Assembly (NCBI GenBank): GCA_963770895.1
Contig: CAVYRF010000002.1
Span: 5,216,001-5,280,000 of the forward strand
Direction of reading: 5' to 3'
Length of the DNA stretch: 64,000 nucleotides
Origin: an uncultured Acidobacteriota bacterium
Lineage (GTDB): Bacteria > Acidobacteriota > Thermoanaerobaculia > Multivoradales > UBA5704
Shown: piece by piece, positions 3,984-53,097 of the stretch
How positions within the stretch are numbered: position 1 is the first letter of the stretch
Layout: each line of letters starts with the position of its first letter
Position numbers and translations under genes: made by a program
The notes under the pieces: generated by a model
Database searches by the model: none
What the model was told of the DNA's origin: nothing
What the model saw: only the letters and a program-made list of their open reading frames with translations

Positions 3984-4033
3984 CGTGACTGAAAATCACG
4001 GTGTCGGCGGTTCAATTCCGTCCCTGGGCACCA
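3984..4033 (+). repeat. att copy 1: 3' half of tRNA-Phe(GAA), anticodon arm to CCA
   Basis: CGTGA-CTGAAAA-TCACG anticodon arm, GGTTCAATTCC T-arm, CCTGGGCACCA end. No GCCCAGG acceptor 5' strand or D-arm upstream. Confidence 0.9.
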
Positions 4034-4047
4034 AATAAGCCCAATAA

Positions 4048-4060
4048 AATCAATGATTTA
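4048..4060 (+). promoter_or_regulatory. Putative IHF-binding site in att arm
   Basis: AATCAATGATTTA matches the WATCAANNNNTTR consensus, 14 bp after the att CCA. Confidence 0.55.
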
Positions 4061-4100
4061 CGAGTAGTCGCCGGCCGAGGTGTCTTCGCTCGTTTGGCGC

Positions 4101-4122
4101 CAGGGCTGTCGCTGGGCTGTCG
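4101..4122 (+). repeat. Putative integrase arm-type sites (2 x C[A/T]GGGCTGTCG)
   Basis: The same decamer recurs three times at 37987-38018 and several times at 52918-52978, each upstream of an integrase. Confidence 0.7.
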
Positions 4123-4272
4123 CGGATCGGGTTTCGCGAGCCCGGCCGGTCGGCCGCTGAGCAGCCCGCGACGGGGTCCAGAGTTGCCGAGAAGAGGCGC
4201 CGAGGAGCGGCGAAGGCCGTCAGCTGGCGGCACTATGGCCCGCTCGGAGGGGCGATCCCCTGATTGCGAGCT

Positions 4273-4608
4273 TCAGCGTGAGATTTCGACCTCGCCCGTC
4301 AGCTCCTCGGGGTCGACCTGGACCGCCGGTACCGACGCCTGGCCAAGCGTCTCCAAGAAAAGCTCCACTGGAAGGTCTGCCATCCTCGCAGCCTGAGCCA
4401 GGGTCAACTGCTCGGCCGCGAAAAGCCGGATAGCCAATGCGCGGTGCACCCCGAACGACAGCAGAAGGTCGTCGAACGGTACCGCCAGGATCACAGGCCG
4501 GCCGTGCTTCGTGATGATCGAGAGCTTGCCCTCCTCGGCACCACGCATCAGGTCGCCCGAGCGGTTGCGCAGATCGCGGATGGTGAAGATGCCGAAGGGC
4601 TCTCTCAT
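4273..4608 (-). CDS. Phd/YefM-UPF0175 fusion antitoxin; toxin partner missing
   Basis: N-terminal [21 protein letters not shown] (Phd-like), C-terminal [20 protein letters not shown] (UPF0175). Close paralog of 39416-39751. Confidence 0.85.
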   Translation of the reverse strand: MREPFGIFTIRDLRNRSGDLMRGAEEGKLSIITKHGRPVILAVPFDDLLLSFGVHRALAIRLFAAEQLTLAQAARMADLPVELFLETLGQASVPAVQVDPEELTGEVEISR

Positions 4609-4668
4609 AGGTCGATGCGAGCGGCCGCGACGAGTCTAGAATGGCGGACGGGGGCATCTTAGATCGCC

Positions 4669-4977
4669 GTGATCCCGACCACCTACGAGCACATCGCCCT
4701 CGACGACCAGGGTATCCCCTGGATCAGTGCGGCCAACACCAAAGTGGTCGAGCTGGTCGCCAGCGTCAAGGCGCACGGCTGGAGCCCCGAAGAGCTGGTC
4801 TTCCAGTACCCCCACCTGACCCTTGGCCAGGTGCACTCCGCGCTCGCGTACTACTGGGACCACCGCCAAGAGATTGACGCCGACCTGGCCCGCCGGGAGG
4901 ACTATATCGAGCGGTTGCGGGCCGAGACGGGTGATTCCCCGGCCGTCGCCAAGCTCAGAGCCCGAGGCCAGCTCTGA
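4669..4977 (+). CDS. DUF433 domain protein (VapB-like antitoxin)
   Basis: G.P.I..T.V...V....GWSPEEL..QYPHLTLGQVHSALAYY signature. Confidence 0.85.
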   Translation: MIPTTYEHIALDDQGIPWISAANTKVVELVASVKAHGWSPEELVFQYPHLTLGQVHSALAYYWDHRQEIDADLARREDYIERLRAETGDSPAVAKLRARGQL

Positions 4978-6132
4978 CCCGGCTCGGCGGTTTCTACTGC
5001 GACCACCGGGGTGAACCCGGCAGGCGATCATCCTCCCCCGTATCGATCTCCTCGCCGCGTTTGTAGACCAGCCCAACCGCCTTCCCCCCCGACTAGCTGA
5101 ACGGGCAACGGTCCTTGGCCAGGGGCCTCGTCTCTTCCGACGGGGGTTTGGTCGCCGAGGCCCGCTACCGCCCGACCGTGCGTCGTCGTCGCCATGGGTC
5201 GGACTAGCTGGCTTCCCAGCGCGCGGGACAAATCGGGGCGCCCAGTACTGGGTAGTCTCCCCTGGGCGAACGGTTGCCATCATGCGCTAGTAAATCGCTA
5301 AAATAGCTGTACCCGACGCCCGTAAGTCCAATGTTGTCCATGGAATATGCCTCTGGGCCACTTGCGCGATTCTGAGCAAGCCGTGTGCTCCCCCCTCGCA
5401 GGCTCACGATAAGGCGCGTGGCGCCGGAATCTGAGGCTCGGGCGAGGGGCCATCTGGGCGCCGCGCTACCTGGTTAACCCTTGAACTTCGCGGTCTTCCG
5501 GCACCGTCGCGATCACGGGCCGGACTTGAAATGAGCCGACAGACCTTGCTGACAGCGCCGCGCCGGACGGGCGACGACGTAAGCGACTACTGGTAGACGA
5601 CGGGTGACGGGGGTCACAGGACCGGTGGCCGTCAGGCTGGGGTTGTGTCGCCACCTTCGGTCGACCGTCAGCCATAGGAGAGGCACCGGTTCGATCGCCT
5701 GGCGGGGCTTACCTTGATCGCGGCCGGTGCGGTTGCCTACAGGTCGTCACCGCACCCTCCTGTTCGACTTGGGGCGCATGGACTCTCAGCCCTCCGGCCG
5801 CCCGCCATCTTCGCCGAGCTGGTCCGCAGCCTGCGCCCCGGCACCCGGCATTCCCAACGTCCAGGGCCGATCTCACCTCGGCGAAGGTTGCACCCGCTAC
5901 GCGCTCAAGTCCTCAGCCAACAACGCGGGTCGCTGACGCCACGGCGCGCCCACAGCGGTACCGCCTTACAGCGGCTCGTGACTGACCTCCGGCGACCCTG
6001 GGTCCTTATCGGGAACGAAACACCGTCTTGCCCCCTTGGCAGCCCCCGACGCTCCCCATCTGTCTCGCTGAACCCGGACCTGAGGTGCGGAAGCTCAATC
6101 GAGAGCACCGCATCGTCGATGGAGGTTCAGCC

Positions 6133-6393
6133 GTGTCGCCGACGAAACCACTTGCCAGCACCTCTCGCACCACCGGCCCGCTGTGTGGACCCCGCTTTCT
6201 CCGGCCCGAGCAGGTTGCATCGGCTTACTCCCTTTCCCGGAAGTTTCTCGCTCACGCACGCGGACGGGGTGACGGGCCGGTCTACCGCAAGATTGGGAGG
6301 AAGCTGGTCCTCTACGCCATTGAAGACGTTGAAGCGTGGCTTGCCGCCCGACGGCGTCAATCCACGTCAGACCCAGGCCCCGCGGAAGACTAG
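6133..6393 (+). CDS. Excisionase/AlpA-like HTH protein
   Basis: GTG after GGAGG; FLRPEQVASAYSLSRKFLAHARGRGDGPVYRKIGRKLVLYAIEDVEAWL. Paralog at 40256-40501. Confidence 0.8.
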   Translation: MSPTKPLASTSRTTGPLCGPRFLRPEQVASAYSLSRKFLAHARGRGDGPVYRKIGRKLVLYAIEDVEAWLAARRRQSTSDPGPAED

Positions 6394-6844
6394 GTCCGTA
6401 CCGCGCCGAGCCTGGGCATGGTCGGAACGACAACACCTCCGCTCGTAGTCCATGGCGCTCACCGCCAGCTGGCGAACGCGCGCAACTTGGCGCATCGGGT
6501 GTGCCAGTTCCTCCGACAGGGGCATCGGGCCGAAACCTTGAGGCTTGCGCAATCCATCGCAGGTTGCGCAAGCCGCTTCAGGGTTGTTGAAGGCCACCTT
6601 GAAGGCGCATACCCCTGTTTCGGTCCCCTGTGCCCGGCCTGTGCTCTCTTGCGGCAGCGGCGTTTGTACCGCAGGCTACTTGATGTCGAAGAGAGGCTGC
6701 GAAGGGACACGCCCGAGGTGGTTGCAACTTTCTTGACGCTTACCATCAGGACCCCTCGGGGCATTGAAGGCTTCCACGGCGAGATCACCGGGTTCAAAAG
6801 AGGTGTCGCTCGGTTTGTCGCGAGCCTTGAACTTAGGGGGGCAC

Positions 6845-8289
6845 CAGTAATGTCCGGTTAGAAGTCGAACAGAATGAGTTGGTTAGCCGCAGTGCGCAGT
6901 TCTCGCTGGGACCGGTCAGGCTGGAAAGCGCATGAAACCTCGGTTTTCTCGAAGACCGAGACCGACAAGATCTGTAGACATGTGTAGAGCGAGGCATCGA
7001 GTTGAAGCTCCTTCTTAAGGATGGCAATCAGCACGTAGGTCGCGACGGCGCACCAGATTTGCGTCTTCACGGCGTTCTCGCTGGTGCCCAGGAATCGCTT
7101 GATGCGCAGATGTTGCTTGATCCACTTGAAGAACAGCTCGACCTGCCATCGGCTCTTGTACAAGGCAGCGATCGCCAACGGTGGCAAAGTCGTGTTGTTT
7201 GTCAGGAAAACAAGCGTCTTGCCCGAAAAGGGGTCCTTGAAACGGACGCGCCGCAAATGCTCCGGGTAGGCCTTGGCCGAGTAGAAGCCATTGAGCATCA
7301 CGCGCTGGTCGCAGATCACGCCAGTGGCGCGTTGCGTCTCAAACGAATACACCCGCCGGGCGGCCATTCCATGCTTGGCGCGGGTGACGAAGAAGGCTCC
7401 GGTCTGATGCATCGCATAGAGCCGCGCGAAGTCGACATAGCCGCGATCCATGACGTAGAAGGCTCCAGCCTCGACGGGCAGGATGTCGAGCACGTTCACA
7501 TCGTGAAGTTTGCCGTCGCTGATGAGGATGAACGTTGGAATCGCGCCGCGCAGGTCCAGAAGCGTATGCAGCTTGACCGCCGCCCTGGTCGATTGAAACG
7601 GCGCCCAGTCGAACAGGCTCAGGCACAGATCGATGGTGGTGGAGTCGAGGGCGTAGACGCTGGTGTCGAGATCGAGGACCGAAGGCTCTTGCGCATAGAG
7701 TGCTCTGGCGCGCACGATCAGCCGCTGAGCCAGCGCCTGATAGATACGCCAGTCGCGACGCTCGAGCGCGTCGGCCAGCGTCGAGCGGGCGGGCGCTGCC
7801 TTGATTCCCATGTGGAAGAGCTTGCCTTGATTGGCAGCGAGGCAAGCCTCGATGTCGCGCAGAGACTCGCGCCAAGTGAGCTGCGCGAAGGCCATGATAC
7901 GGAACAGGTCGGCGCAACTGAGGGTACGAACGCCAGCATCGCCCTTGTGTCGCTCGATGATGCGTCCGAAGGTCTTCCAGGGGACGAACTCCATCACCTG
8001 TGCGAACAGCGTCTTGCCCACGTTCATGCGTCACCTCGGATCGGTCTGACCCGAGAGCATCGCAAATCGTCTGCTCAAGATGGGGCATCGCGGTGAAGTG
8101 CGGGGAGCGTGCCTCAGGCCTCAACCGCGGTCTCGAGCCGTCGAGCTCGGAGCCGCCCTTTGCACCGGACTCCAGGTCATCCTGTACGCAAGGCCAGGAA
8201 TTCAAATCGTGGACACCCATCGGAGGCCGCAAGTGCCAGTCACTGCCACGTTTGTGGCAACAGGTCGCCAAAACAACCGGACACTACTG
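6845..8289 (-). mobile_element. IS4-family element
   Basis: TIRs CAGTAATGTCCGGTT / AACCGGACACTACTG; 9-bp TSD GGGGGGCAC at 6836-6844 and 8290-8298. Confidence 0.95.
6858..8027 (-). CDS. IS4-family transposase
   Basis: DUF4372-like N terminus; DSTTIDL, VMDRGY, YKSRWQVELFFKWIKQHL. Confidence 0.95.
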   Translation of the reverse strand: MNVGKTLFAQVMEFVPWKTFGRIIERHKGDAGVRTLSCADLFRIMAFAQLTWRESLRDIEACLAANQGKLFHMGIKAAPARSTLADALERRDWRIYQALAQRLIVRARALYAQEPSVLDLDTSVYALDSTTIDLCLSLFDWAPFQSTRAAVKLHTLLDLRGAIPTFILISDGKLHDVNVLDILPVEAGAFYVMDRGYVDFARLYAMHQTGAFFVTRAKHGMAARRVYSFETQRATGVICDQRVMLNGFYSAKAYPEHLRRVRFKDPFSGKTLVFLTNNTTLPPLAIAALYKSRWQVELFFKWIKQHLRIKRFLGTSENAVKTQIWCAVATYVLIAILKKELQLDASLYTCLQILSVSVFEKTEVSCAFQPDRSQRELRTAANQLILFDF

Positions 8290-9261
8290 GGGGGGCACTG
8301 CGAATCATCGAGGTCCAGCCGCGGGAAGATCAGGGGCTTGGGTTGCACTGTCACGTCGTCGCGTTGACGGACCGGCTATCGCCTACGACGGCCACCGTGC
8401 GCAGCCCGAGCCAGCTCAGTACTGAGTGGCGCACGAGTTGCCGTCTAGCCTATGCGCCGCAGGTAGATGCTCAGGTCATCGACCTCCGAGAATCGCGGAG
8501 GCTCGCCCGCCTCGGGTACTACTTGCGGAAGTCTTGGGGGGACGACTTGTCGTGCAGGCGAAGCCGGAGGATGCTTATTGACCCCGACCACGCTGCGGCT
8601 GTGGCTCTCGTTTTCAAGGGCTGCTGCCGCATGAGCGCTGCCGGGCTGATGAAGCAGGCCCTGGCCGCCGGCATTGCCGAATACCGAGCGTCAAGACCCC
8701 AGCCTTCCCTTCCGCCCCGAGCGGAGTCCGCGCCCAGGACGCCGGCGAAGGTGCCGCGCCGCGGGGCACCTCCTGCGAGGCAGCGACCCAGCACGCCGGC
8801 TCCAAGCCAGGAAGCCTCTCCACGTCCGCAGGTCTGCACGCGCTGTGCCTGCCGGTTCATCGTCAGCCGGCGCACCAAGTACTGCGGCGCGGCTTGCGCG
8901 GCTGCTGTCCGAAGAGAGAGGCAAAGAGCCTCGAACAAGGTCTATCAGGCGACTGCGAACGGGACACGGCACCACAACGAACGCCAGCGCCGGTACCGCG
9001 CACGCAAAGGAAAGTGACGGAGCAGTGTTGCCAGCTCCCATCCCTTCAATCCATATCGCCTTATGCTCGATCGCGGGATGCAGCATCCAGGTCGCGGCTG
9101 GTGTCGGCTTCACCTGGAAGAAAGGCGCTCTTCCAGCCCTTGGCACTCCCGAAATACTCCGCGATTCGGAGTCTTCGGACGTCCCGCGTGGATACCCATC
9201 CAGACCCGCACCGAGCTGCTGGCGAAGGGGATTCGGAGCCACTGGGTATCAAGGTCTTCGG

Positions 9262-10600: not shown

Positions 10601-12106
10601 ATGCTCGATGCCGGGATCGTCACCGAGATCAAACGCCTGCATTACGCCGAGCACTGGCGGATCGGCACCATCGCCGCCCAACTCGGCGTCCATCCGGATG
10701 CTGTCCGTCGGGTGGTGTCCGGCGAGCCGGGAAGCCGGCGGCCGGCGGCGCCGCGGCCGTGCCGGATCGATCCGTTTCTGCCCTTTGTGACCGAGACCCT
10801 GGAGCGCTATCCGCGTCTGTGCACCACGGTGCTGCATCGCATGCTGCGCGAGCGCGGCTTTGTCGGCGGCGTATCGCAGTTGCGGCGGGTGGTGCGTGCG
10901 CTGCGGCCTCATCGTCGCCGGGTCTTCGTGCGTCTGGCCAGTCTTCCCGGCGAAGCCGCGCAGGTCGATTGGGCCGACTTCGGCTGCGTCACCGTGGGCC
11001 GTGCCCGGCGCCGGCTGGCGGCCTTTCTCATGACGTTGGTCTACTCGCGGGCGCTCTACGTCGAGTTTTTCTTCGACCAGACGCTGGGCAATTTCTTGCT
11101 CGGCCATGTCCACGCTTTCGAGCACTTTGGCGGCGTACCGCGTCAGGTCGCGACGGATAATTTGCGGTCGGTCGTGCTGGAGCGCCATGGCAACCAAATC
11201 CGGTTTCATCCGCGCTATCTCGAACTGGCCGGTCATTACTGCTTCGAAACTCGCCCCTGCCACGTCGGCGCCAGCCAGGAAAAGGGCCGCGTCGAGCGCT
11301 CCGTGCGTTACGTACGAGATTCGTTTTTCGCCGCTCGCGGCTTTACCACCCTGGCCGATCTCAACCGCAGCGTCGGGCGTTGGATGGCCGAGGTCGCGTC
11401 GGTGCGCCGCTGGGTGGACGATGATGCTCGTGCCGTCGCCGACGTCTTTGCCGAAGACGAGCAGCGCCGCCTCCTACCGCTGCCGCGGCATTCCCTCGAT
11501 ACCAGTCAACGCAGTACGGTGCGCAGCGAAAAGCTCCTCTTTATCCGCTTCGACCGCAACGACTACTCCATCCCACCGACCGCGGTCGGCAAAGATTTGA
11601 CCCTGCTCGCCACGGATTGCGAGGTCCGTCTGCTCGACGGCACCGTCGAGATCGCCCGCCATCGCCGGTCCTACGACCAGGCCGAGCGCCTCACCGACCC
11701 GGCTCACAGCCAAGCCCTGCTCGCCCACAAGCGCGGCGGCGTACCGACCGCCGTCGAGTCTCCCCTGCGACTCGCCGTACCCGAGGTCGCGGCCTTCTGC
11801 GATGCCGCCTTTGCCCGCTATCGGAGCGTGGCCCTGCTGACCACCGCACTGACTCGCATGCTCCATCTCTACGGAGCCACATCCCTGAGCGCCGCAATCG
11901 CGGAGGCCCTTGGGCGTCAGACGCCGACCCTCGATGCCGTCGAGTACCTGCTCGAAAGGCACCGCCGCGCCGCCCAGCGGCGCCCTCCTCTGCCCGTCGA
12001 CCTGACCGACAAACCCGAGCTCGCCACCTATCATGTCCAACCCCATCCTCTCGCCGGCTACGACCAGCTCGCCCACGACGCCGCCACGGAGGATGTCGAT
12101 GATTGA
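10601..12106 (+). CDS. istA: IS21 transposase IstA
   Basis: [40 protein letters not shown]. Confidence 0.95.
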
Positions 12107-12857
12107 CCTTGCCGCGCAGCTCCGCGCTCTCGGCCTCTACGCCACCGCCGCCGGACTCGACGATCTCATCGCCACGGCCAGCCAACGGCGCCTCGGGCCT
12201 CGCGCTCTGCTCGAACACATCGCCACCGCCGAAGCCGCCGACCGCGCCCGCCGCTCCCTCGAACGGCGGACTGCCAGAAGCCGACTCGGCGCCTTCAAAC
12301 CCATCACCGATTTCGATTGGAGCTGGCCAAAGAAAATCGATCGCCCCCTGCTCGAACGAGCTCTTACACTCGATTTCCTCAAGGACGGCAGAAACCTCAT
12401 CGTCCTCGGACCCAACGGCGTCGGCAAGACCATGCTCATCAAAAACGTCGCCTATCAGGCTGTGCTCGCCGGCTATTCCGTGCTCTTTCGAACCGCTGCC
12501 GAACTGCTCGACGACATCGACTGCGACTCCCCAGAGCTACGACGCCGCAGAATCGCCGCCTACACCACGCCCGCCCTCGTCTGCCTCGATGAAATCGGCT
12601 ATCTCTCCTACGACGACCACGCCGCCGATCTCCTCTACAAGGTCATCAACCCCCGCTACGAAAAACGACGCTCTCTGCTCCTCACCACCAACCTCGCCTT
12701 CAAAGACTGGAACGCTGTCTTTCCCAACGCCACCTGTATCGTCACCCTCATCGATCGCCTCACCCATCACGCCGACGTCACCGCCATCGAAGCCGACAGC
12801 TACCGCCGACGCGAGAGCGAGGCCGAGGCCGCCGCCCGCCGCAAGCGCAAGCCATGA
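12099..12857 (+). CDS. istB: IS21 helper ATPase IstB
   Basis: Walker [26 protein letters not shown]. Confidence 0.95.
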
Positions 12858-37977: not shown

Positions 37978-37986
37978 GGTCGTTGG

Positions 37987-40501: not shown

Positions 40502-40596
40502 GCTGCGGTGTCCAGGCAGACGAATATGCGCCAGGAGCTGCTTGCCAACCTGGCGGCGGCGGTGCGTGCGCGTGGCGGTCGGCGCGAAGGGCAGGA

Positions 40597-42001: not shown

Positions 42002-42710
42002 AGGGCAGGAGGTGCGCTTCCTCTGCCCGGAGCACGAAGACCATCGCCCTTCGGCAATGTGGAACCCCGAAAAAGCTGTCTGGTGCTGCCCTGCATGCGG
42101 CGCGAAGGGCGGCGCTCACGACCTCGCCGCGCGGCTTGGCGTCGAGCTCTCTGCCGCGCAGCGGATGCACGCGCCGAACGCGACCACGGTGTATCCCATC
42201 CGCGACTCAGCCGGGCGCCTGGTCGCGGAGCACATCCGCATCGAACGGCCGGGAGGCGAGAAGACCTTCACCTGGCGGCGCGATGGCCGCTCGGGACTGC
42301 AGGGGCTGCGGGTCGCCGAGCTGCCGCTGTACGGCACTGACCGCGTTGGATCGTTCGCCCGTTCCCGACCGGTATTTCTCTGCGAGGGTGAGAAGGCGAC
42401 GGACTGCCTGGTCCGCATCGGCGCCCAGGCGGTTGGTACGGCGACAGGTGCGGGGGCAGTGCCCGCCCCTTCATCCTTGGGCGTGCTCCAAGGAATTGAC
42501 GTGCGGCGAAGTGACCTCGACCCGAGCCATATGGTTACACCAGGAAGGGGGGCGCCAGCCACACGGGACATGCCTCTCCCTCAGCGGCGGCTTGGAGCGA
42601 TGCCATCGAGGAATTGCCATGCATTAATTTGACGCCGAACGCCTGCGCTCCTATTCTGCTCTAGGTTCATTCTATGAATGCCAGGGGATTTCATCGAAAG
42701 TGAGGTGCGC

Positions 42711-44381
42711 ATGTCGGAGGCGGAACTCATTCTCGGGTGGCAAGTCACACCTAACCTAGATCCCAGATATTGGTTTTCGCCGGATGCAATGTGCGGGAAG
42801 CAAGCAGATGCGGATCTTTTCAAGGTTCCCGCAGGCGAAATGGCTGCGCACACAGCGATTATCGCTCAATCGGGATCGGGCAAGTCATTCTTCTTGGGTC
42901 GTATAGTGGAAGAGATTGCCCTCCGCACGCGAGCTCGGTGCCTGATCCTCGATCCCAATGCTGACTTTAGGCGCCTTCACGAGGTGGAAGGTGCCGAGTT
43001 GTGGAGTACTGGCCGCTATACCTCGGCGTCGCGATCCGGCAAGTTGTGCCATGAACCATCGCGCGCCGAATTTGCGAATGCCTGGTCTGAGATCAAGGTT
43101 GAGGTGCTCAGCGCGACTCGATCAAGGGAGGGCGTCGCAACCAAGCCTCTGCGCTTCAGCTGGCCATCCGTTTCCGCCGAATTCCTTGCTGAGGACTTGG
43201 GTCCTGCCCAACGGAGTGAGCTGGAGAATCTGCATGCTTTCGTCAAGATCATATACGACGCCCTGTCTCTCGGCTCGACTGATCACAGAAAAACAGATGA
43301 TTATCTCCGCAAGGCCGAGATGCTGCTGAATCTCGCCATAGCCAATCCAGCGGATTTCGAGACAGCCGTCAAAGACCTAAGTAGGGCCGAATTTCATGAT
43401 GCCTCATCTTTGCAATCTTCTGTCCTATTGCGCTTGGGGCTGTTTCGAACCTCCTCCCTGATGACAAGGCGCCGGTCGATCGATCATTTGGTAAAGGGAG
43501 CATTGGCAGCCGCGCGATATGTAAGCGATGACACGCGGCGGTTTTATTTCGGCAAATTAAGCAGCATCCTGGCCGCGGGGATAATCCAGACCGGAATCAG
43601 CGATGAGGAAGGCGCAAGTGCGACCGAAGCTGATGCCAGGATATCGGTGATAGACTTGCCGTCCATCGCTCACTTATCTACGCGGTTATTGGCCGTAAAC
43701 GCTTGCATAAAGTCTCAATGGGATGCAGCCAGAGCTGCTTGGGATGAAGCATTGCAACACCTCCCCGTCGATGATGCGCGGGTGCCAACCTTCATCGTAG
43801 TTGACGAAGCCCATAACGTTATACCACGCGAGCAGCGCAATCGCGCCGAATACGCACTGCGGGAGCAGTTTCGCACCATAGTAGCAGAGGGCCGCAAATA
43901 TGGCCTGTTTTTGATCCTCGTTAGCCAGCGACCCGACAAGCTGGATCCTTTGATCGTGTCAGAGTGTGAAAACCGCGCAATCATGAAGCTCAGCTCGCGC
44001 AGCGCCTTGGATGTCACCAGGGAAATGCTTGCCCTGGAAGACATTCCGCCCAACGTCCTGGCCAAATGTTTGGAGCTGCCGGTCGGGCGGGTGCTAATGG
44101 TGGGAAGTTGGGCTAAAGACGGTCCTCAATTTCTTTACTCTGCCGCAAGGCGCACAGTAGAGGGTGGCCGCAATCTGCGACGTGAAAAGTGGGCTGTCGC
44201 CCCTGCGCGCCCTTCGCCAGCGACACAGCAACAACTAGCGGCAGCGCCGCAAGAGGTCGAGAGAAAAGCCGCGGAAAGTGGTGCTATTTCGGCCAAGAAG
44301 CCGCCATCGAAGCGGCAAGCGCAAAAAAAGAGGCCGATATCCGCGCGCACTCCCAAGCGCACGCTGTCTAAGTCGTCCTGA
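42711..44381 (+). CDS. HerA/FtsK-like (DUF87) ATPase
   Basis: AIIAQSGSGKS, ILDPNADF, IVVDEAH, EGRKYGLFLILVSQRP; start may be 42678. Confidence 0.85.
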   Translation: MSEAELILGWQVTPNLDPRYWFSPDAMCGKQADADLFKVPAGEMAAHTAIIAQSGSGKSFFLGRIVEEIALRTRARCLILDPNADFRRLHEVEGAELWSTGRYTSASRSGKLCHEPSRAEFANAWSEIKVEVLSATRSREGVATKPLRFSWPSVSAEFLAEDLGPAQRSELENLHAFVKIIYDALSLGSTDHRKTDDYLRKAEMLLNLAIANPADFETAVKDLSRAEFHDASSLQSSVLLRLGLFRTSSLMTRRRSIDHLVKGALAAARYVSDDTRRFYFGKLSSILAAGIIQTGISDEEGASATEADARISVIDLPSIAHLSTRLLAVNACIKSQWDAARAAWDEALQHLPVDDARVPTFIVVDEAHNVIPREQRNRAEYALREQFRTIVAEGRKYGLFLILVSQRPDKLDPLIVSECENRAIMKLSSRSALDVTREMLALEDIPPNVLAKCLELPVGRVLMVGSWAKDGPQFLYSAARRTVEGGRNLRREKWAVAPARPSPATQQQLAAAPQEVERKAAESGAISAKKPPSKRQAQKKRPISARTPKRTLSKSS

Positions 44382-44525
44382 GTCGCTAAAACATCGATGT
44401 GACGAATGAAAGCGGTAGGGGGGTAGCGGACGATTCGCGGCAGGTGGCGGATCGTGACGTGCCCCCCTGAAACTGGCCAGGCGATAGAGTGAGTCCTCCG
44501 GCAAAGGCAGTGCCTGGAGGAAGCG

Positions 44526-44792
44526 ATGAGGAAGAGTCGATTCACGGAAGAGCAGATCATCCGGGTGTTGAAGGCGGCTGAAGCTGGGGAAAAAGCCACG
44601 GACCTGTGCCGGAAGCACGGCATCAGCGAGCAGACGTTCTACCGTTGGAAGGCCAAGTTTGGCGGTATGGACGTCAGCGAAGCGCGGCGCCTCAAGCAGC
44701 TGGAAGACGAGAACCGGCGCCTGAAGCATGCGGTGGCGGATCTGACCTTGGAGGCGCAGGCGCTGAAGGCGGCGCTGGCAAAAAAATGGTGA
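44526..44792 (+). CDS. IS3 transposase OrfA
   Basis: MRKSRFTEEQII..LCRKHGISEQTFYRWKAKFGGM. Confidence 0.95.
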   Translation: MRKSRFTEEQIIRVLKAAEAGEKATDLCRKHGISEQTFYRWKAKFGGMDVSEARRLKQLEDENRRLKHAVADLTLEAQALKAALAKKW

Positions 44793-45565
44793 AGCCCGCG
44801 GCCCGGCGCGAGGCAGCCACGTTCTTCCGGGAGGAGTATGGAACCAGCCAGGTGCGTGCCTGCGCAATGGCGAGCCTTCATCGCTCCACGTACGCCTATC
44901 GTAGCCAGGTGACGACAGAAGCTCAGGTCTTGCGCCGGCGGCTGCGCGAGCTTGCCGCAGAGCGGCCGCGGTACGGGTACCGGCGCTTGCATGTGCTTCT
45001 GGTCCGAGAGGGCCATGAGGTGAATCACAAGCGCGTGCACCGGCTCTATCGCGAGGAAGGCTTGATGGTGCGTCGGCGACTGCGCAAGCGTGTTTGCCGA
45101 GAGCAGCGCCAGCCTCTGGCACGAGCGGAGCGGCTGAACCAGTTTTGGTCGATGGATTTCATCGGCGACACCTTGGCCAACGGCAGAACCTTCCGCAGCC
45201 TCAACATCGTCGACCAGTGCAGCCGGGAATGCCTTGCTTTGGAGGTCGACAGCTCGTTGCCGGGCCTTCGGGTGACGCGGGTACTGGACCGTCTGGCCGG
45301 CCAGCGTGGCCTGCCGCAGACCCTGGTCGTGGATAACGGCCCGGAGTTCGCTGGAAAGGCCCTCGACCTCTGGGCTCACCAGAACAAGGTGCATCTCCAC
45401 TTCATCCGGCCTGGGCGGCCGATCGAGAATGCCTTTGTGGAAAGCTTCAACGGCCGTTTTCGGGACGAGTGCCTCAACCAGCACTGGTTCACCAGCCTCG
45501 CCGATGCTCGGGCCAAGATCGAGGCCTGGCGCGACGACTACAACGCCCAACGTCCCCATAGCGCG

Positions 45566-46969
45566 CTAGCAGCCCGTGGTGCAAGCCGGATTCTGACGGT
45601 GGGCCAGATCGCGGGGGGCCAGGGTGAAGCAGGTGATGAGATCGATCCGAGACATCCAGGATTGAAGCGATCTGGCGCAGGAGTCGGGCCGTAGGGCTTC
45701 GAGGAGCCCAAAACCAAGAGAAAGCCAGCGGCGGAGGCGTCCCTGAAGGCCGCGCGGCGTGCCATGGCCGATTCGCTGGCGCATCACCAAGCCGAGGTTG
45801 AAGGCTGCCTCGTGAATCAAGAGGCGCTTGAGGATGTTGGCGTGACCGCGCAGAAAAAGGCGCCGCAGACCGCCGGTTTCGTAGCTATGGGCCATGCTGC
45901 GCTCCACCTTCTCGCAGCGCCAGCGGGACAGCCTCTTGCCGCGATCCCCTCGCATCCGACGATGGTTGGCGTAGGTAGCTTTTTGTTCGGCAATCCGACC
46001 CCGCCACTTCCGGCGCGGTCGCTTGGGTTCCGCGATGTAGCTGCGCAGGCCGAGCTCCTGCATCCCCACCAGCACAGCGCCGCTGTGATAGCCCCGATCG
46101 GCCACGACCTCCCGCAGCACTTGCGGGGACAAAGTGATCGAATCGGGGAGGGCCGCCAGATTCTCCAGCGTTTCGCTCAGGGTCTGCTCGTAGCTCTGCG
46201 TGTCCCCTCGATCCGCCGGCTGGAGGGTCACCGCGACGACCGCTCCGGTCTCCAGATCCACGGCGTGCTCTGCTTTGTGCGCCAGATGGGTCCGGCCATC
46301 TTTCATCTTGGTGATCTTGGCGTCAGGATCGTGCGGGTTCGTCCAATCGTCGTTCGACCCTTTCCCTTTTCGTTTCTTGTCTTTACGCGCCAGCTCCGCA
46401 CGTGTGGGCGTCGCTTGCCCGCTCTCTTGAGCCAGACGCTGGAGAAACTCCTTGTAGCCTTCCCCGGTGTCCCGCCGCACGATGCTCTTCATCGCCGCGT
46501 TGGCTTCCAAGGTCGTAGCGTCGACCCCGATTGTCTGCCCCCGCAGAAGGCCTTCCTGGCCCAAAATCCCCAGGACCCAGGCGAAGACCTCCTGATGCGT
46601 TTCCACGTCGATCAGACGCCGGTTGCGCGAAATCGTCGAATGATCCGGCGGGGCTTCCGACAGGCTCAAACCCAAGAAATCGCGCAGCGTCAGCGAATCC
46701 GACACCCGCCAGGCGATCCCCCGTTCCGAGTTGAGCCCTTCGAAATAGCCGATCAGAAGCAAGCGGAAGTAGGTGCCCGGCGGCAGCGACGGCCGGCCCA
46801 TCCGCTCCGCATAGAAGCCCTGGCACTGTGCCTCCACGAAGCCGTCGAACCCGTGCTGCTCAAGAACCCGGTTCAAGCGTTCGTAGAACGGATGGCCAGG
46901 ACCGCGGGCCAGGTCGCCCGTCGCGATCCACATGTCCCCTTGCCGGCCCTTCTTCTTGCCCATCGCCAT
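45566..46969 (-). CDS. IS1182/IS5-like transposase (DUF772 plus DDE)
   Basis: GRPSLPP, PDHSTISR, VDATTLEANA, ADRGYHS, VERS; the stop TAG comes from the TSD. Confidence 0.9.
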   Translation of the reverse strand: MAMGKKKGRQGDMWIATGDLARGPGHPFYERLNRVLEQHGFDGFVEAQCQGFYAERMGRPSLPPGTYFRLLLIGYFEGLNSERGIAWRVSDSLTLRDFLGLSLSEAPPDHSTISRNRRLIDVETHQEVFAWVLGILGQEGLLRGQTIGVDATTLEANAAMKSIVRRDTGEGYKEFLQRLAQESGQATPTRAELARKDKKRKGKGSNDDWTNPHDPDAKITKMKDGRTHLAHKAEHAVDLETGAVVAVTLQPADRGDTQSYEQTLSETLENLAALPDSITLSPQVLREVVADRGYHSGAVLVGMQELGLRSYIAEPKRPRRKWRGRIAEQKATYANHRRMRGDRGKRLSRWRCEKVERSMAHSYETGGLRRLFLRGHANILKRLLIHEAAFNLGLVMRQRIGHGTPRGLQGRLRRWLSLGFGLLEALRPDSCARSLQSWMSRIDLITCFTLAPRDLAHRQNPACTTGC

Positions 46970-47045
46970 TCGGCAATCCTCCGCCAGTGTGACAAGTCTC
47001 TCAGGTGACACGACCCTCGACAACTACTACTTGCACCACGGGCTG
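45570..47045 (-). mobile_element. IS1182/IS5-like element nested in IS3
   Basis: Perfect 16-bp TIR CAGCCCGTGGTGCAAG; CTAG TSD at 45566-45569 and 47046-47049. Confidence 0.92.
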
Positions 47046-47195
47046 CTAGGTGATCGCACGCCCAGAGAGTTTGCCGTTTTGACCCAAGAGCTGCGAGAGC
47101 CTTCGTCTCTCGCAGCTCCCCCCGCCCCCTTGGCTGGGGCGTCTAACCCGCCGGCGACGACTCACCTTTCAGACTGACCGGTCATTGGGGGCAGG

Positions 47196-48368
47196 TCAAT
47201 GGCTATCGTCCTCGGACGCGAGTTTTCGACGCCCAACTTCAGCTCCTCTTCGGACCGAGGCAATAGTTGTCTCCACGTTACCCATAAAACGATCAAGCTC
47301 AGCACCAACTACCTTCGCTGTCCGAGTCAAGCCTCGTTCCAGCCCCTCCATTGACTTGAGACTCGTCCGCATCGCGCTGATGTTAGGTAGGGCGCCGCGC
47401 GCGGCCTGCTCTACTTGATCTAGAGTCGTCACGAAAGAAAGAAGGGCGTCGCGATCTTGAGCAGATTTTATCCTTCCGTGTGATATCATGAACTCGATGC
47501 TATCCTGAGTGGCCCGAGCAATTGCTTCGTAGTTGTCGTTTGTTGATGACAGCTCTTGACCGTACTGCACCAGCTCTCGACTGTACGCATTAGCGATGAA
47601 CCGAACGCTAGACAGTACTTGTTTTCCTTGGGTCGCCCTAGCAGTATCGATTCGCTTTGCATACTCGCTCGACTTTGTGCCTATTGAAAGCGTTGCAGCA
47701 GTGGATGAACCCAAAGCATTCACCAAGCGCTCGAAGCCCTCCGCAAGCCCTGCCGCATGGTCAAGCCAGCCGGCCTCTCCATCTCCGTCATCGTCGCCGT
47801 CTTCATCGGACGCGCTTTGGGGTTTTAGGGAGGGAGATCGAGGGCGGTTCTGTGGACGCTCGCCAGAGAAGTCGGAAACAGGACTCCCGAATTCCAGTGT
47901 ACCCCGGAACGCTTCCAAAGCTGTTTGCTGAAAGGATTCGCGCGCCCTTTGAATACGCGCAAAATGCGTGTCGTAAATTACGACCCTGTAAGATCGCAAA
48001 TCGAAGGGCAGTTCATCTATATTTTGGGTTAACAGTACGACAGGCGTTCCGAGGCCATGCGCTATACCTAGTTCATAGAAAACGTTGGCGTTGAGGCCTG
48101 TTAGGTCGGCTATAACTAGAGCGCTAGTCTTAATGCGCTGAACTATGTCTCTGAGTATATTGTTCTGGCCATATAGATCGTCGGCACGAGATACCGAGTA
48201 GCCTACCCCTTCGAGGACAGGTAATATAAACTCGCGATACACCTCGTCAAGCTCGGCGTCAAAGGGCATTATTACGAATGCCGCTGGCGCCTCGTTGTCA
48301 TTAGTCATAGTTGGCGTCATGAGCTGTTGCTCCGGCACTTCAGGGGCCGCGAGCATGCCTCCTCCCAC
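47196..48368 (-). CDS. Nucleoside 2-deoxyribosyltransferase (NDT)-like domain plus helical region; 3' end set by the IS3 terminus
   Basis: AFVIMPF..RADD..IADLTGLNANVFYELGIAHG..LPFDL; stop TGA is the IS3 end; true start may be 48320 or 48356. Confidence 0.8.
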   Translation of the reverse strand: MGGGMLAAPEVPEQQLMTPTMTNDNEAPAAFVIMPFDAELDEVYREFILPVLEGVGYSVSRADDLYGQNNILRDIVQRIKTSALVIADLTGLNANVFYELGIAHGLGTPVVLLTQNIDELPFDLRSYRVVIYDTHFARIQRARESFQQTALEAFRGTLEFGSPVSDFSGERPQNRPRSPSLKPQSASDEDGDDDGDGEAGWLDHAAGLAEGFERLVNALGSSTAATLSIGTKSSEYAKRIDTARATQGKQVLSSVRFIANAYSRELVQYGQELSSTNDNYEAIARATQDSIEFMISHGRIKSAQDRDALLSFVTTLDQVEQAARGALPNISAMRTSLKSMEGLERGLTRTAKVVGAELDRFMGNVETTIASVRRGAEVGRRKLASEDDSH

Positions 48369-49284: not shown

Positions 49285-49287
49285 GCT

Positions 49288-51144
49288 GTGTGCCCAGCAT
49301 GGGCGTGACTTGGAGGTGCAAGTCCTCTGGGGAACCTGGTCGCAGGGACCCCGAGCGAACCGCAAGGCGACCGGCCGCGAGGCCGGCGCTGAAAGAAGCG
49401 GTAGCGAAACCGCGGGTTGACGAACAGAAACCGGATAGGAGGCGGCGCAAGCCGGGGCGAGCGGGCAGCGAACCGCGAAGCTCCTGCGACCAAGGGCGAG
49501 CGCCGTAAATCCGGCAGCCGTGCGGGGAAAGCCACGACCCTTACCTGGGGAGGTCTCGCCTGACGCCTGAAAGGGCGACGCCGCAGGGCGGAGCGAGAAG
49601 TCAGCAGAGGTCATAGTAGCCGGGGAGGCGGGAGGGGAGAGGCGAAGGACCGAACGGGGAGGAGAGAGCAACGACCATGGGTCTCGAAGGTGCACGGCGC
49701 CAGATGACCGGGCAACTGGAACTCCCGTTCGAACCAAGGGGTGAAGCCCCGCGAGGAGAGCGGAGTGGCGAAGCACCGACGGCGAGTCAGGGAGACGAGC
49801 GCTCAGGGACCGACCGCCTAATGGAACAGGTGGTGGAGCGGGGCAACGCGAAAGCGGCGTTGCGGCGAGTGAAGCAGAACCACGGAAGTCCTGGCATCGA
49901 TGGGATGACGGTGGGAGAGCTGTCAGCTCACCTGGTGAAGCAATGGGAAAGTATCCGGGCACAACTCCTGACCGGGACTTACCAGCCGCAGCCGGTGAAG
50001 CGGCAGCCGATTCCAAAGGCGGGAGGAGGAGTCCGGGAGTTGGGGATTCCGACCGTGCTCGACCGTTTCATCCAGCAGTGCATCTTGCAGGTTCTTCAGC
50101 CGCGCTTTGATCCGACTTTCTCTGAGCACAGCTACGGCTTCCGACCTGGGCGGCGAGCGCACGACGCCGTGCGAGCGGCGCAGAAGTTCATCCAGGAAGG
50201 GCGCCGTTGGGTCGTGGACGTGGACCTGGCGAAATTCTTCGACCGGGTAAATCACGATGTGCTCATGAGCAGGCTGGCCCATCGAATCGCGGACAAGCGC
50301 ATGCTGGGACTGATTCGTCGTTACCTTGAGGCCGGAATTCTGGCCGAAGGGGTGACGAAGGAGCGGCACGAGGGGACTCCTCAGGGAGGTCCTCTCAGCC
50401 CGCTACTGGCAAACGTGCTCCTCGACGAAGTGGATCGGGAGCTGGAAAAGCGCGGACACGCCTTCGTGCGTTACGCCGACGACAGCAATGTGTATGTGCG
50501 GTCCCGGCGTGCCGGCGAACGAGTCCTTGGGACTCTTCGGCGGCTCTATTCGCAACTCCGGCTCCAGATCAACGAAGGGAAGAGCGCGGTGGCGCGGCCA
50601 TGGGATCGCAAGTTCCTGGGCTACAGCTTCTGGATAGCCCCCGGACGCGTGATTCGCTGTCGCGTCGCACCCGAAGCTTTGGAGGCGATGAAGACGCGGG
50701 TACGGCACATCACCGGCCGCAGCGAGGGCCGGAGCATCGACTTGGTGGCTGCGAGCCTCCGAGAATATCTGACCGGCTGGAAAGAATACTTCAGTCTGGC
50801 AGATGGCCGGCAAAAGCTCACCAGCATCGACAAGTGGATCCGTCGTCGCCTGCGTATGGTCCAGCTCAAGCAGTGGAAACGAGGTGCCACGACCTACCGA
50901 GAGCTGCGCAGGCGGGGCGTTCCCGAACGCGAAGCCTCCTGGTCGAGTGCCCACGCCCGCAGCTGGTGGAGGACCGCCAAGAACACCGCCCTCAACATGG
51001 CCCTGCCAACGAGCTACTACGACCGACTGGGAATACCCAGGCTTGCCCCGTAACCTCAACTCCTCGAACCGCCGGATGCGGACCCGCATGTCCGGTGGTG
51101 TGGGAGGGGAACGGCGGGGATGACCCGCCGTCCCCTATCCCGAT
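49288..51144 (+). mobile_element. Group IIC intron, apparently complete
   Basis: 5' GTGTGCCCAGCATGGGCG; domain V GAACCGCCGGATGCGGACCCGCATGTCCGGTGG; domain VI ending ATCCCGAT; inserted after a hairpin. Confidence 0.92.
49677..51053 (+). CDS. ltrA: Group II intron reverse transcriptase/maturase without endonuclease domain
   Basis: PGIDG, LGIPTVLDR, SYGFRP, GTPQGGPLSP, RYADD, FLGY. Confidence 0.95.
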   Translation: MGLEGARRQMTGQLELPFEPRGEAPRGERSGEAPTASQGDERSGTDRLMEQVVERGNAKAALRRVKQNHGSPGIDGMTVGELSAHLVKQWESIRAQLLTGTYQPQPVKRQPIPKAGGGVRELGIPTVLDRFIQQCILQVLQPRFDPTFSEHSYGFRPGRRAHDAVRAAQKFIQEGRRWVVDVDLAKFFDRVNHDVLMSRLAHRIADKRMLGLIRRYLEAGILAEGVTKERHEGTPQGGPLSPLLANVLLDEVDRELEKRGHAFVRYADDSNVYVRSRRAGERVLGTLRRLYSQLRLQINEGKSAVARPWDRKFLGYSFWIAPGRVIRCRVAPEALEAMKTRVRHITGRSEGRSIDLVAASLREYLTGWKEYFSLADGRQKLTSIDKWIRRRLRMVQLKQWKRGATTYRELRRRGVPEREASWSSAHARSWWRTAKNTALNMALPTSYYDRLGIPRLAP

Positions 51145-51239
51145 TCTAGGGAATGGGGGGCGCGATGCCCCCCTCTGTGTCTCTGGACTACTCGACTGCG
51201 ATCACCTCTCTGCCTTGTCGCCGGCTCAGGTGGCGACCG

Positions 51240-51605
51240 GCCGCAGTCGCGCTCGACGGCGGCGACAATTGCACTTACCTGCACGGCCATCTTGCCGGCG
51301 AAACGGGCAAGACGGGCTTCCTGGGGTTCGAGGCACTATTCCTCTGCCGCCTGGCGCATCGAGAGGAAGAACCCCTCGATGAAGCGCAGCTCGGCCAGGG
51401 CGGCGCGCATCTCCTCGTGGCTGGTGGACTCGTCGCCGGGGAACTCGGCCGTCACGATCGCCATGTCGTAGATCATCCGGCCAACCTGGCGCAGCGCCTC
51501 TCGCGATACCGGATCGTCAACGCAGATGAGGGTCGTTTCCCGGAAGGAATCGGCGGCGTTCCAGGGTGGCGGTGGGGGCGGGGTAGACTGGTTGCAGCTC
51601 TGCAT
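51240..51605 (-). pseudogene. Paralog of 48860-49225 with an internal amber stop
   Basis: After TAG 51336-51338 the frame continues CLEPQEARLARFAGKMAVQVSAIVAAVER, matching DDDLARFAGKLAGKVGAIAESIE. Confidence 0.7.
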
Positions 51606-51706
51606 GAGGCTGTTCCTCCTGCTGGGTTAGGCGTCGGTCGGGGCTGTACACCCTGCCCGGCGCCGCTTGTAAGGAAATGGAGCGGCACGATACCGCCCCG
51701 CTTGCT

Positions 51707-52906
51707 TCAGGGCTTCTTGAAGGGGATCACCTCCCCGGCCGGCTGGCCGTTGAGATCGGCGGCGATCTGGCTGGAGATCCGCGCGGCGGCGGCGCGGCGT
51801 GGGTCGTCGTCCAAGTGCGCGTAACGTGCGGTTGTCGCCGGGTGGCGGTGGCCGAGGATGGCGCCAAGCACCGGCAGCCCGAGATTGGCTGCTACGCCCA
51901 CGGAGGCAAATCCGTGGCGAAGGTCATGCAGTCGGACATCCCCCAGGCCGGCCCGCTCGCGGATGCGCGCCCAGGGCCGCTGTAGGCCCACGAAGCGCCC
52001 ATTCGGCCGGCGGCCGGGGATGACATAGGGGCTGCCCTCCAAGCGCGGCGCAGCGGCCAGCAGCTCGGCCGGCGCCGGGCCGAGCGGGATGGACTTCTTG
52101 CCGGTCTTGCTGTCGGGCAGGTTGAGGGTGCCGGTGTCGAGATCCACGTCCTGCCAGCGCAGATCGAGGATCTCGTTGCGCCGAGCGCCGGTCAGCAGGA
52201 GCAGCCGGATTGCCAGGACCGCGGCCGGGTCCTCCGAGCCGTCCTGCTCGACCGCGGAGAGCGCCTCGCCGAGCCGGCGCAGCTCAGCACCAGACATGAA
52301 GCGCTCGCGCCTGTTCTCGCGAAAGCGGGCGATCCTCGGGCAGGGGTTCGAATGGAGCGGCCGAAGTCCCCACGTCTCGGCCAGGTTGAGCATCTTGCTC
52401 ACCAAGGCGAGGACGCGGTTGGCCTGTACCGGCTTCTCCCGCAGGCTGTGGTGCAGGTCGGAAACCTCCTTCAGCCCGACCGCGGCAACCTTCCGCCGCC
52501 GGAGCGCCGGCAGGACGTAGAGCCGCAAGCTCCGCTCATCGGCTTCGATGCTGGCCGGCTTCTTCTTCGGCCCGGCATGCTCCTCCAGGTAGCGGCGGGC
52601 GAGATCGGCGAACGTCGGCGCGGTCTTCTCGTCTGCCCGCTCGGCCGCCGGGTCCTCGCCGCGGGCTACTCGGCCGAGGATTTCTCTCGCGCGGTCCCGC
52701 GCCTGGTCAACGGTGACGGGGCCGAACTCGCCCAGCGTCAGCCGCCGGGTCCGGCGCTCCCGCATCCACTCGACGGCAAACCACTGGCGCCCGCTGGACC
52801 GCACCCGGACTACGAAGCCGCGCAGCTCGGTATCCCACACCTTGACCTCGCCGGCTGCCGGCGGCGGCAGGGAGTCGAGCAGGCGTTTGGTGATCTTGGC
52901 TCGCAT
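51707..52906 (-). CDS. int: Tyrosine integrase of element B
   Basis: Same catalytic motifs and long identical stretches versus 36748-37977. Confidence 0.95.
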   Translation of the reverse strand: MRAKITKRLLDSLPPPAAGEVKVWDTELRGFVVRVRSSGRQWFAVEWMRERRTRRLTLGEFGPVTVDQARDRAREILGRVARGEDPAAERADEKTAPTFADLARRYLEEHAGPKKKPASIEADERSLRLYVLPALRRRKVAAVGLKEVSDLHHSLREKPVQANRVLALVSKMLNLAETWGLRPLHSNPCPRIARFRENRRERFMSGAELRRLGEALSAVEQDGSEDPAAVLAIRLLLLTGARRNEILDLRWQDVDLDTGTLNLPDSKTGKKSIPLGPAPAELLAAAPRLEGSPYVIPGRRPNGRFVGLQRPWARIRERAGLGDVRLHDLRHGFASVGVAANLGLPVLGAILGHRHPATTARYAHLDDDPRRAAAARISSQIAADLNGQPAGEVIPFKKP

Positions 52907-52917
52907 GGATCGGGTCG

Positions 52918-52978
52918 CTGGCTGGGCTGTCGGGCTGGGCTGGCGCTGGGCTGTCCTGGGCTGTCGCTGGGCTGTCGG
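52918..52978 (+). repeat. About five CTGGGCTG(TC) direct repeats, putative arm-type sites
   Basis: Expanded version of 37987-38018. Confidence 0.7.
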
Positions 52979-53082
52979 AGAACAGGATTCGAAGGGTATC
53001 ATAGGGAACGGCAGAGTCAAGAAAGTCCATAGAATAAGGCTTTCAGGGATGTACTTGGATCATGGCAGAACACGGACACCAA

Positions 53083-53097
53083 GACTGAAAATCACGG
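53083..53097 (+). repeat. att copy 3, truncated (GACTGAAAATCACGG)
   Basis: Same upstream context as copy 2; the T-arm/CCA part is replaced by intron sequence. Confidence 0.85.

Follow-up and report, generated by a model that had tools for sequence, protein, structure and literature searches.

Probably decayed sibling integrative elements with different replication genes behind xis in an uncultured Acidobacteriota bacterium

The accretion of genomic islands in tandem is well described in Proteobacteria and Firmicutes. The use of one integrative chassis with different replication genes is already known from the integrative and conjugative elements of actinomycetes (AICEs): as far as the relevant passages of one account go, the small elements pSAM2, SLP1 and pMEA300 occupy the 3' end of a tRNA gene, with int next to attP and a replication gene beside xis, and carry unrelated replication proteins of the rolling-circle replication (RCR), RepAM and Prim-Pol types (PMC2440964). 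A third comparable group, the phage-inducible chromosomal islands (PICIs), is defined in the pertinent part of another account by five components, namely an integrase, an AlpA/MerR/Stl regulator, a primase-replicase, a capsid-morphogenesis gene and a small terminase; sets of int, alpA and primase alone are there termed 'Type C', called unreliable and set aside by the SatelliteFinder authors (PMC10085698). Here we analyze a 64-kb stretch of DNA (the window, C2:5216001-5280000) from the 8.16-Mb genome (70.8% GC) of an uncultured soil bacterium of the Acidobacteriota (class Thermoanaerobaculia), in which two elements, A (3984-38170) and B (38124-53097), lie head-to-tail in tandem. Positions are those of the window unless prefixed C1: or C2:.

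Elements A and B are probably decayed members of a family of integrative elements that has no name yet and whose replication genes are modular. The comparison supports their being siblings with different replication initiators directly after xis. Since AICEs already show a common chassis with unrelated replication proteins (PMC2440964, in the passages noted above), the locus is a known kind of element, one chassis with varied replication genes, in a little-studied phylum. Furthermore, because the replication gene of each island is broken by an insertion, and a different gene in each, A and B are probably worn-out carriers of defence genes and not working phage satellites. Like AICEs, they combine int, xis and rep in a family that uses the tRNA 3' end, although a real tRNA is occupied only in relatives; unlike AICEs, they have xis and rep at the end opposite int in the integrated element, belong to another phylum, and are decayed and much enlarged by cargo and insertion sequences (ISs). 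They resemble tandem genomic-island arrays in having head-to-tail siblings with related integrases and repeated att sites between them, and there is a second such array at the genome's own real tRNA-Phe; unlike island arrays at tRNA genes, the array studied here is detached from the tRNA gene and its outermost att site is cut by an intron.

Open reading frames (ORFs) were compared with PHROGs (58 ORFs) and Pfam (76 ORFs and 294 six-frame segments), and PADLOC, Rfam and ARAGORN were also run; the small genes (xis, primase and Rep) were recovered by reading all frames together with the six-frame Pfam scan. Relatives, numbered with the prefix G, come from a search of 300 genomes of the order and, for the integrase, of 41 close genomes. 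The features that make up the shared chassis are as follows:

3984..4033, plus strand: attL of A, tRNA-Phe positions 27-76 (anticodon stem to CCA, without the 5' half), 50/50 identical to C2:3299036-3299111
4100..4136, plus strand: repeats of the CTGGGCTGTCG motif, candidate arm sites for the integrase; further copies at 37997-38018 and 52922-52977
4273..4608, minus strand: Phd/UPF0175 antitoxin-like gene of A with no PIN partner left (Pfam UPF0175, E 7.7e-11)
6028..6393, plus strand: Xis/AlpA-like helix-turn-helix (HTH) gene of A (HTH_17, E 4.7e-5; phrog_66 excisionase, E 7e-7)
36748..38136, minus strand: integrase of A, a P4-type tyrosine recombinase (Phage_integrase, E 2.2e-21; Arm-DNA-bind_3, E 2.8e-14; phrog_1, E 3e-58)
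38124..38170, plus strand: shared att site (attR for A, attL for B), tRNA-Phe positions 30-76, matching the tRNA at 45/47
40256..40501, plus strand: Xis/AlpA-like HTH gene of B (HTH_17, E 5e-4; phrog_66, E 3.2e-7)
51707..53020, minus strand: integrase of B, P4-type (Pfam Phage_integrase and Arm-DNA-bind_3)
53083..53097, plus strand: attR of B, of which only tRNA positions 30-44 (15 nt) are left
53098..53229, minus strand: remnant of a second group II intron, its 3' end with domains V-VI, antisense and abutting the core, the rest deleted (RF00029)

The kinship that had been predicted for A and B from their sequence is borne out at the level of individual genes. The two integrases are 78.9% identical over 436 aa and have the same two domains, and that of B is 94% identical to an integrase at the real tRNA-Phe array. 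The Xis-like proteins share 63% identity over 73 aa and both match phrog_66, their HTH_17 matches falling below the Pfam cut-off, while the Phd/UPF0175 proteins of A and B (39416-39796) are 82% identical. The resemblance extends to the DNA of the termini, with the left ends of A and B aligning over 84 nt at 85% identity and the int-proximal arms over 108 nt at 93%. Within about 170 nt of the att core in each instance lies the 11-nt motif CTGGGCTGTCG, with six exact matches against 0.08 expected, and these repeats are candidate arm sites for the integrases. The gene order that A and B were said to have in common did not hold up: between the ends of the two elements it differs.

The replication genes directly after xis, with the insertions that break them and the ATPase beside the second, are:

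6418..9017, plus strand: split HUH Rep (Rep_1-like) gene of A, in pieces 6418-6844 and 8299-9017
6845..8289, minus strand: IS with a DDE_Tnp_1 and DUF4372 transposase (Pfam), inside the Rep gene
40508..42632, plus strand: primase gene remnant of B, an N-terminal piece left of IS256 followed by 42012-42632 with a CHC2 zinc ribbon and TOPRIM
40597..42001, plus strand: IS256 (Mutator-family transposase; Transposase_mut, E 2e-65), inside the primase gene
42678..44381, plus strand: HerA/DUF87-like ATPase, 567 aa, cargo (DUF87, E 5.7e-10; PADLOC HerA, E 1e-24)

An HUH Rep after xis in A had been recognized from the sequence, and a Rep_1-like ORF is indeed present, albeit in two pieces. Minus the IS and one copy of its target duplication, the gene reads about 381 codons in one frame. 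Its N-terminal part (ORF 6418-6861) matches Pfam Rep_1 (PF01446) with E 2.7e-6, and as in the pC194/pUB110-type initiators of that family three motifs occur in canonical order, in a single frame across the IS: FLTLT in the N-terminal part, and HCHVV and YYLRK in 8299-9017, which we take to be Rep motifs I, II (HUH) and III (Tyr). In departure from Rep_1, the match scores 27.5 bits against a gathering cut-off of 33.2, and there is an additional Cys-rich C-terminal domain. The C-terminal part has no Pfam match even at E 5; its closest named Atlas clusters are Rep_1, with scores of 0.75-0.84 that serve as a lead only. The catalytic part has no homologue in the 300 genomes, where the Rep matches fall in the C-terminal region and mostly on the Cys-rich tail; a weak match in one relative (G270; E 6.6e-5, residues 16-105) lies within a 1896-aa frame. 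A search of a 5.8-billion-protein index recovered only the query itself, and phmmer of the N-terminal part against PDB gave no match. We accept 6418-9017 as a putative divergent HUH Rep broken by an IS. That IS is flanked by 9-bp target duplications (6836-6844 and 8290-8298), and the genome holds two further full copies at 99.9% identity, each with its own 9-bp duplication, and a partial one at 99.3%.

The Cys-rich domain at the Rep C-terminus is also found as a stand-alone multi-copy ORF. A 614-nt repeat at 36171-36784 (ORF 36218-36634, minus strand) encodes a 138-aa Cys-rich protein and has a 99.7% identical copy at C2:1993577; further instances of the domain lie at 8880-8999 (the Rep C-terminus) and 10183-10359, and in relatives it forms a multi-copy ORF of ~148 aa (8 matches in G003, 7 in G034). 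This repeat may be a small unclassified mobile unit.

In B, the zinc-finger/TOPRIM primase noted behind xis was likewise confirmed as an ORF with CHC2 and TOPRIM regions, but it is split by IS256 and has no helicase domain. The frame begins immediately behind the stop codon of xis; the 32 in-frame codons left of IS256 match relatives at the N-terminus, and IS256 is bounded by 9-bp duplications at 40588-40596 and 42002-42010. The ORF at 42012-42632 matches Zn_ribbon_DnaG just below the cut-off (E 6.9e-5), PHROG primases (E 2e-9 and 1.5e-8) and the PDB primase 1d0q (E 0.0024). An alignment with four full-length relatives shows the CHC2 zinc ribbon and TOPRIM acidic residues of DnaG-type primases, with C5, C26, C29, E125, D168 and D170 invariant; in the same alignment the stub ends about 30 residues past the TOPRIM DxD and the helicase domain is absent, whereas the relatives (511-773 aa) run on for ~400 aa into AAA_25 or DUF3987. 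The HerA-like ATPase begins where the primase homology ends, in a lower-GC patch. It was considered as a stand-in for the missing helicase and rejected, since the 300 genomes contain a single close homologue, which has TPR, outer-membrane and LacI genes as neighbours and no primase nearby.

Integrase relatives occur in 31 of the 41 close genomes and xis relatives in 71 of the 300 genomes of the order. Among the best-scoring 13 of more than 110 xis loci, the gene after xis is:

primase-helicase: 3
AAA_25 helicase: 3
convergent integrase: 3
no Pfam match: 2
host PKS gene: 1
VapB/PIN pair: 1
HUH Rep: 0

Tabulating this gene in relatives had been proposed as a check on exchangeable replication modules; among these best 13 loci primase-helicases and AAA_25 helicases recur (3/13 each) and the HUH Rep does not (0/13). 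The tRNA-Phe core is present at 7 of the 13. In G234, G020 and G250 a sibling occupies a real tRNA-Phe gene; the elements of G234 (6.4 kb) and G020 (8.7 kb) are complete and contain int, xis, a helicase and three small ORFs of unknown function. These complete siblings at real tRNA-Phe genes support tRNA-Phe as the target of the family. Of the predicted tRNA-Phe-targeting satellites with interchangeable replication modules, the targeting and the differing initiators after xis stand, and the satellite status is unsupported.

For the locus itself the claim of a tRNA-Phe insertion site had to be dropped: ARAGORN finds no tRNA in the 64-kb window, and the genome's single tRNA-Phe (C2:3299036-3299111) is 1.9 Mb away. 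The repeats of its 3' half do occur at the three predicted places, the third trimmed to 15 nt by an intron. They are far beyond chance, because the 15-mer core occurs exactly six times in 8.16 Mb, and all six copies are at these arrays or the real tRNA (three in the window, three at the real tRNA-Phe array). In three genomes of the same genus (G003, G002 and G009) an orthologue of the ABC1 kinase is followed within about 400 nt by an orthologue of the sequence from C2:5299234 onward. As the flanks are thus directly joined, the array heads an insertion of ~79.7 kb, from about 3850 to beyond 64000 of the window (C2:5219850-5299170), which is missing at this site in the three congeners. Only its first 49 kb are integrase islands; the remainder holds transporters, a GH15 enzyme, an aldo-keto reductase and a kumamolisin-like protein, and no integrase. 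The idea that the site is a decayed second tRNA-Phe gene was rejected: the ~17 kb upstream of the kinase orthologue contain no tRNA-Phe in G003, G002, G009 or G011 (three of the four lack any tRNA there, while G011 has a tRNA-Cys and two tRNA-Gly), and the directly joined flanks in three of those relatives also oppose it.

The real tRNA-Phe has an island array of its own (C2:3299065-3350355, loci L118-L120). In its first unit (28.8 kb) the left end is A-like, and the gene products include an integrase of 31% identity, a TIR-CHAT protein, a large serine recombinase and LanC; the second unit (22.5 kb) has RadC, a 112-aa protein, the integrase that is 94% identical to that of B, and lanthipeptide genes. 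On either side of this second unit stand direct repeats of ~700 nt that consist of the att-site intron described next.

The third att core, the attR of B, is only 15 nt long, as the remnant of an antisense group II intron directly adjoins it; these 15 nt are thus an artefact of intron insertion and not a recombination core. About 132 nt of this intron are left in the window, with a full-model RF00029 match at 53173 to 53098 (minus strand) of 59.3 bits, against a gathering score of 40, ending at the base that adjoins the core. In G003 the same intron is complete in the same position, with about 1.88 kb and a 446-aa reverse transcriptase (RT) frame; it interrupts a displaced tRNA-Phe half in antisense orientation, between tRNA positions 44 and 45, with the remainder of that half following the intron. 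Such intron/tRNA-half junctions occur at 8 sites in 4 of the 300 genomes, all of one genus. No functional tRNA is among them: the 29 nt upstream differ from the tRNA 5' half at 17-23 positions. Besides 53098-53229 (minus strand) of the window, the sites of this lineage include C2:3327901, C2:3350370, loci L027 and L028 of G003 and locus L029 of G002. An antisense T-arm hairpin lies immediately upstream of where the intron is inserted, which suggests that homing may be hairpin-guided (class C-like). Our literature search found no paper describing an intron lineage antisense in displaced tRNA-Phe halves.

Taken together, the family is predicted to operate as follows, the roles of Int and Xis, the replication of an excised circle and the loss of autonomy being what we infer. 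The P4-type tyrosine integrase would recombine an attP carrying the tRNA-Phe 3' half with the tRNA-Phe gene, and the AlpA-like Xis would direct excision. The initiator encoded directly after xis would then copy the excised circle; it would vary by member, with A alone using an HUH rolling-circle Rep and the others a helicase or a primase-helicase. Decay at the present locus is seen in the IS that cuts Rep, in IS256 cutting the primase with loss of the helicase domain, and in the intron remnant that trims the outer att of B, the decayed tandem array heading the ~80-kb insertion at a non-tRNA site. The benefit left to the host would presumably be the cargo: the type I-C retron, the PIN/UPF0175 pair, the TIR-like protein, BrnT and the large unknown proteins.

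Several points weigh against this interpretation. Both integrases and both xis ORFs are full length and the two att repeats of A are intact, for which reason excision may still be possible, and the short primase of B could in principle work with host helicases were the IS absent. The assignment of Rep is sub-threshold, with a Pfam match below the cut-off, Atlas scores < 0.9 and a catalytic part without homologues, and the AlphaFold2 model of its C-terminal part is unusable at a mean pLDDT of 45.5. The 13 loci that were examined are the best-scoring of the xis matches and not a random sample. Finally, this interpretation does not account for the arrival of an array of tRNA-Phe halves at a non-tRNA site.

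Of the alternatives the one that fares best, though we regard it as doubtful, is that the family consists of integrative mobilizable elements served by a conjugative helper, with the HUH Rep of A acting as a relaxase-like nicking enzyme instead of, or besides, an initiator. RCR-type Rep proteins act as relaxases in some mobilizable elements. NikA-like/MobC relaxosome accessory genes adjoin xis in two members of the family and hint at conjugative mobilisation of intact members: the third xis locus of this genome (C2:2951 kb) combines a 603-aa primase-helicase with a NikA/MobC-like gene (E 1.3e-16), and the closest relative of B, in G001, has a NikA-like gene (E 1.1e-18). However, the Pfam scans of ORFs and six-frame segments found no NikA/MobC, relaxase, coupling-protein or type IV secretion gene in A or B, no oriT was identified, and the helicase and primase genes of most siblings suit replication rather than nicking.

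A more ambitious reading, which strikes us as unlikely, takes the intact 6-9 kb siblings as an undescribed Acidobacteriota family in which int, three small unknown genes and an AlpA-like xis are followed by a helicase, a primase-helicase or an HUH Rep. These would be helper-dependent, as minimalist satellites or mobilizable replicons, with the initiator freely exchanged, and the genus-restricted antisense group II intron in displaced tRNA-Phe halves may fix the elements in permanent tandem arrays.

We find it still less probable that A and B are working or recently working satellites of the PICI type or of the PICMI (phage-inducible chromosomal minimalist island) type, induced and packaged by a helper phage and with exchangeable replication modules. 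An integrase, an AlpA-like regulator and a primase or Rep without capsid genes is the minimal layout flagged by satellite searches, the 6.4-kb siblings are satellite-sized, and the pertinent passages of two accounts hold defence cargo to be typical of satellites (PMC10085698) and describe minimalist ones, PICMI, that have no capsid-remodelling genes (PMC10803314). A and B do share defence cargo and the absence of structural phage genes with PICIs, P4-like satellites and PICMIs, but no helper is known for them and by the definitions quoted from PMC10085698 their set would count as 'Type C' only, the same passages allowing that a set of three components may be a random aggregate or some other mobile element. 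The PICI layout that had been proposed is reduced to two intact components of five, the two full-length P4-type integrases and the AlpA-type regulator (phrog_66 for both ORFs, with HTH_17 below its cut-off); the primase-replicase module consists of broken genes only. The PHROG and Pfam scans matched A and B to no gene for capsid morphogenesis, P4 hijacking (Psu, Delta, Sid and Ash), terminase, portal, relaxase or secretion, one partial small-terminase match apart, and instead of the alpha-type primase-helicase of P4-like elements B keeps a zinc ribbon and TOPRIM only. The partial match concerns the protein at 38389-38844, which had been read as TerS; it has a single hit to phrog_309 (E 1.4e-7) over residues 22-74 (53 of 151), weak HTH matches besides (Pfam, E 0.06 only) and no paralogue in A or the rest of the genome, and we find this identification unconvincing. 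Both replication genes are broken, moreover, and the NikA/MobC-like genes of the two family members point to conjugation.

That B is self-transmissible in the manner of AICEs, which according to the passages cited at the outset are tRNA-integrated, have int, xis and unrelated rep genes, and use one FtsK-like ATPase for transfer (PMC2440964), its DUF87/HerA-superfamily ATPase after the primase stub (42678-44381) moving double-stranded DNA as the single FtsK/HerA-type translocase, is very improbable, as this 567-aa ATPase has no FtsK_SpoIIIE match at E 0.01 or better, sits in a low-GC patch beginning at the end of the primase homology, has its one close homologue in an unrelated setting (above) and occurs at 0/13 sibling loci, while Nudix and spread genes did not turn up and the host lies outside the actinomycetes.

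With A and B regarded as decayed members of a modular integrative family, the locus and its relatives define a tRNA-Phe-specific int-xis-replication family in Thermoanaerobaculia and illustrate a route of decay to fixed defence islands, by way of ISs in replication genes, an intron in att and detachment from the tRNA. Neither modular replication on a shared integrative chassis nor tandem accretion is new in principle, both being known in other phyla. Yet the mobile elements of Acidobacteriota are almost undescribed, and our literature search on Thermoanaerobaculia, mobile genetic elements and integrases found no paper. The small intact siblings would offer a useful start for genetic tools or helper discovery in this hard-to-study group.

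The cargo and the remaining insertions of the two elements comprise:

10601..12857, plus strand: IS21 (istA, istB) in A (rve/Mu-transpos_C_2; IstB_IS21, E 7e-52)
15866..25847, minus strand: two giant cargo genes of A, 2026 aa and 1267 aa
26928..28100, minus strand: IS630-type IS in A (DDE_3, E 1.5e-21), with three 100% identical copies elsewhere
30192..31955, minus strand: retron type I-C RT-Toprim defence gene of A (PADLOC RT-Toprim_I-C, E 9.2e-231, full length)
33294..33912, minus strand: BrnT toxin (33547-33912; BrnT_toxin, E 1.7e-26) and a small upstream partner
34540-34998, 34998-35720 and 35717-36055, minus strand: Int-proximal module of A, respectively XRE HTH, RadC and a 112-aa protein
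38389..38844, plus strand: small HTH protein of 151 aa, the supposed TerS (phrog_309)
38922..39796, minus strand: PIN/DUF3368 toxin (38922-39419) and Phd/UPF0175 (39416-39796) of B (PADLOC PDC-S70, E 9e-39)
44455..47049, unstranded: IS3 fragments and an IS1182/IS5-type IS in B
47196..48368, minus strand: TIR-like effector-domain protein of B (PADLOC TIR effector, E 2e-15; phrog_3634, E 6e-34)
49288..51139, plus strand: complete group II intron in B, RT/maturase 49677-51053 (RVT_1 and GIIM; RF02001, 100.9 bits)

The retron, with the RT-Toprim fusion of type I-C intact, is the single full TOPRIM-bearing gene of A, which also carries an ankyrin protein and DUF433 proteins. It lies in a patch of 54% GC (28179-31955) beside a 450-aa protein without a family match. 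The 2026-aa protein shows HTH_upst_double_PIN and a weak PIN-TPR-GreABC match, and the 1267-aa protein matches phrog_18693 (function unknown) over its full length (E 2e-137); these adjacent genes possibly form an undescribed defence pair. Copies of the Int-proximal module, 77-85% identical, adjoin a third integrase at C2:3347389-3348886. In B the PIN/UPF0175 genes constitute a candidate defence pair, PDC-S70, and IS or intron DNA accounts for about 5.9 of its 15 kb (roughly 40%).

The complete intron of B, like the att-site remnant, has domains V-VI above the RF00029 gathering score (41.3 bits against 40, at 51067-51144, plus strand). It lies between the paralogous small genes 48860-49225 and 51336-51605, an uninterrupted paralogue of which is found at C1:1428998-1430301. 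The intron has a copy at C2:767461 that is 97.8% identical and shares its left flank. The RT of the intron of B is only 31% identical to that of the att-site intron. The small genes (minus strand) encode proteins of 89-121 aa with no database match, and about 15 more copies occur in the genome near XRE regulators and integrases in islands. Beyond the islands, 59486-63943 (minus strand) encodes a DUF11-repeat surface protein of 1485 aa that ends in an IPTL-CTERM sorting signal and whose gene contains ~380-nt tandem repeats (60030-61156) that are 74-98% identical.

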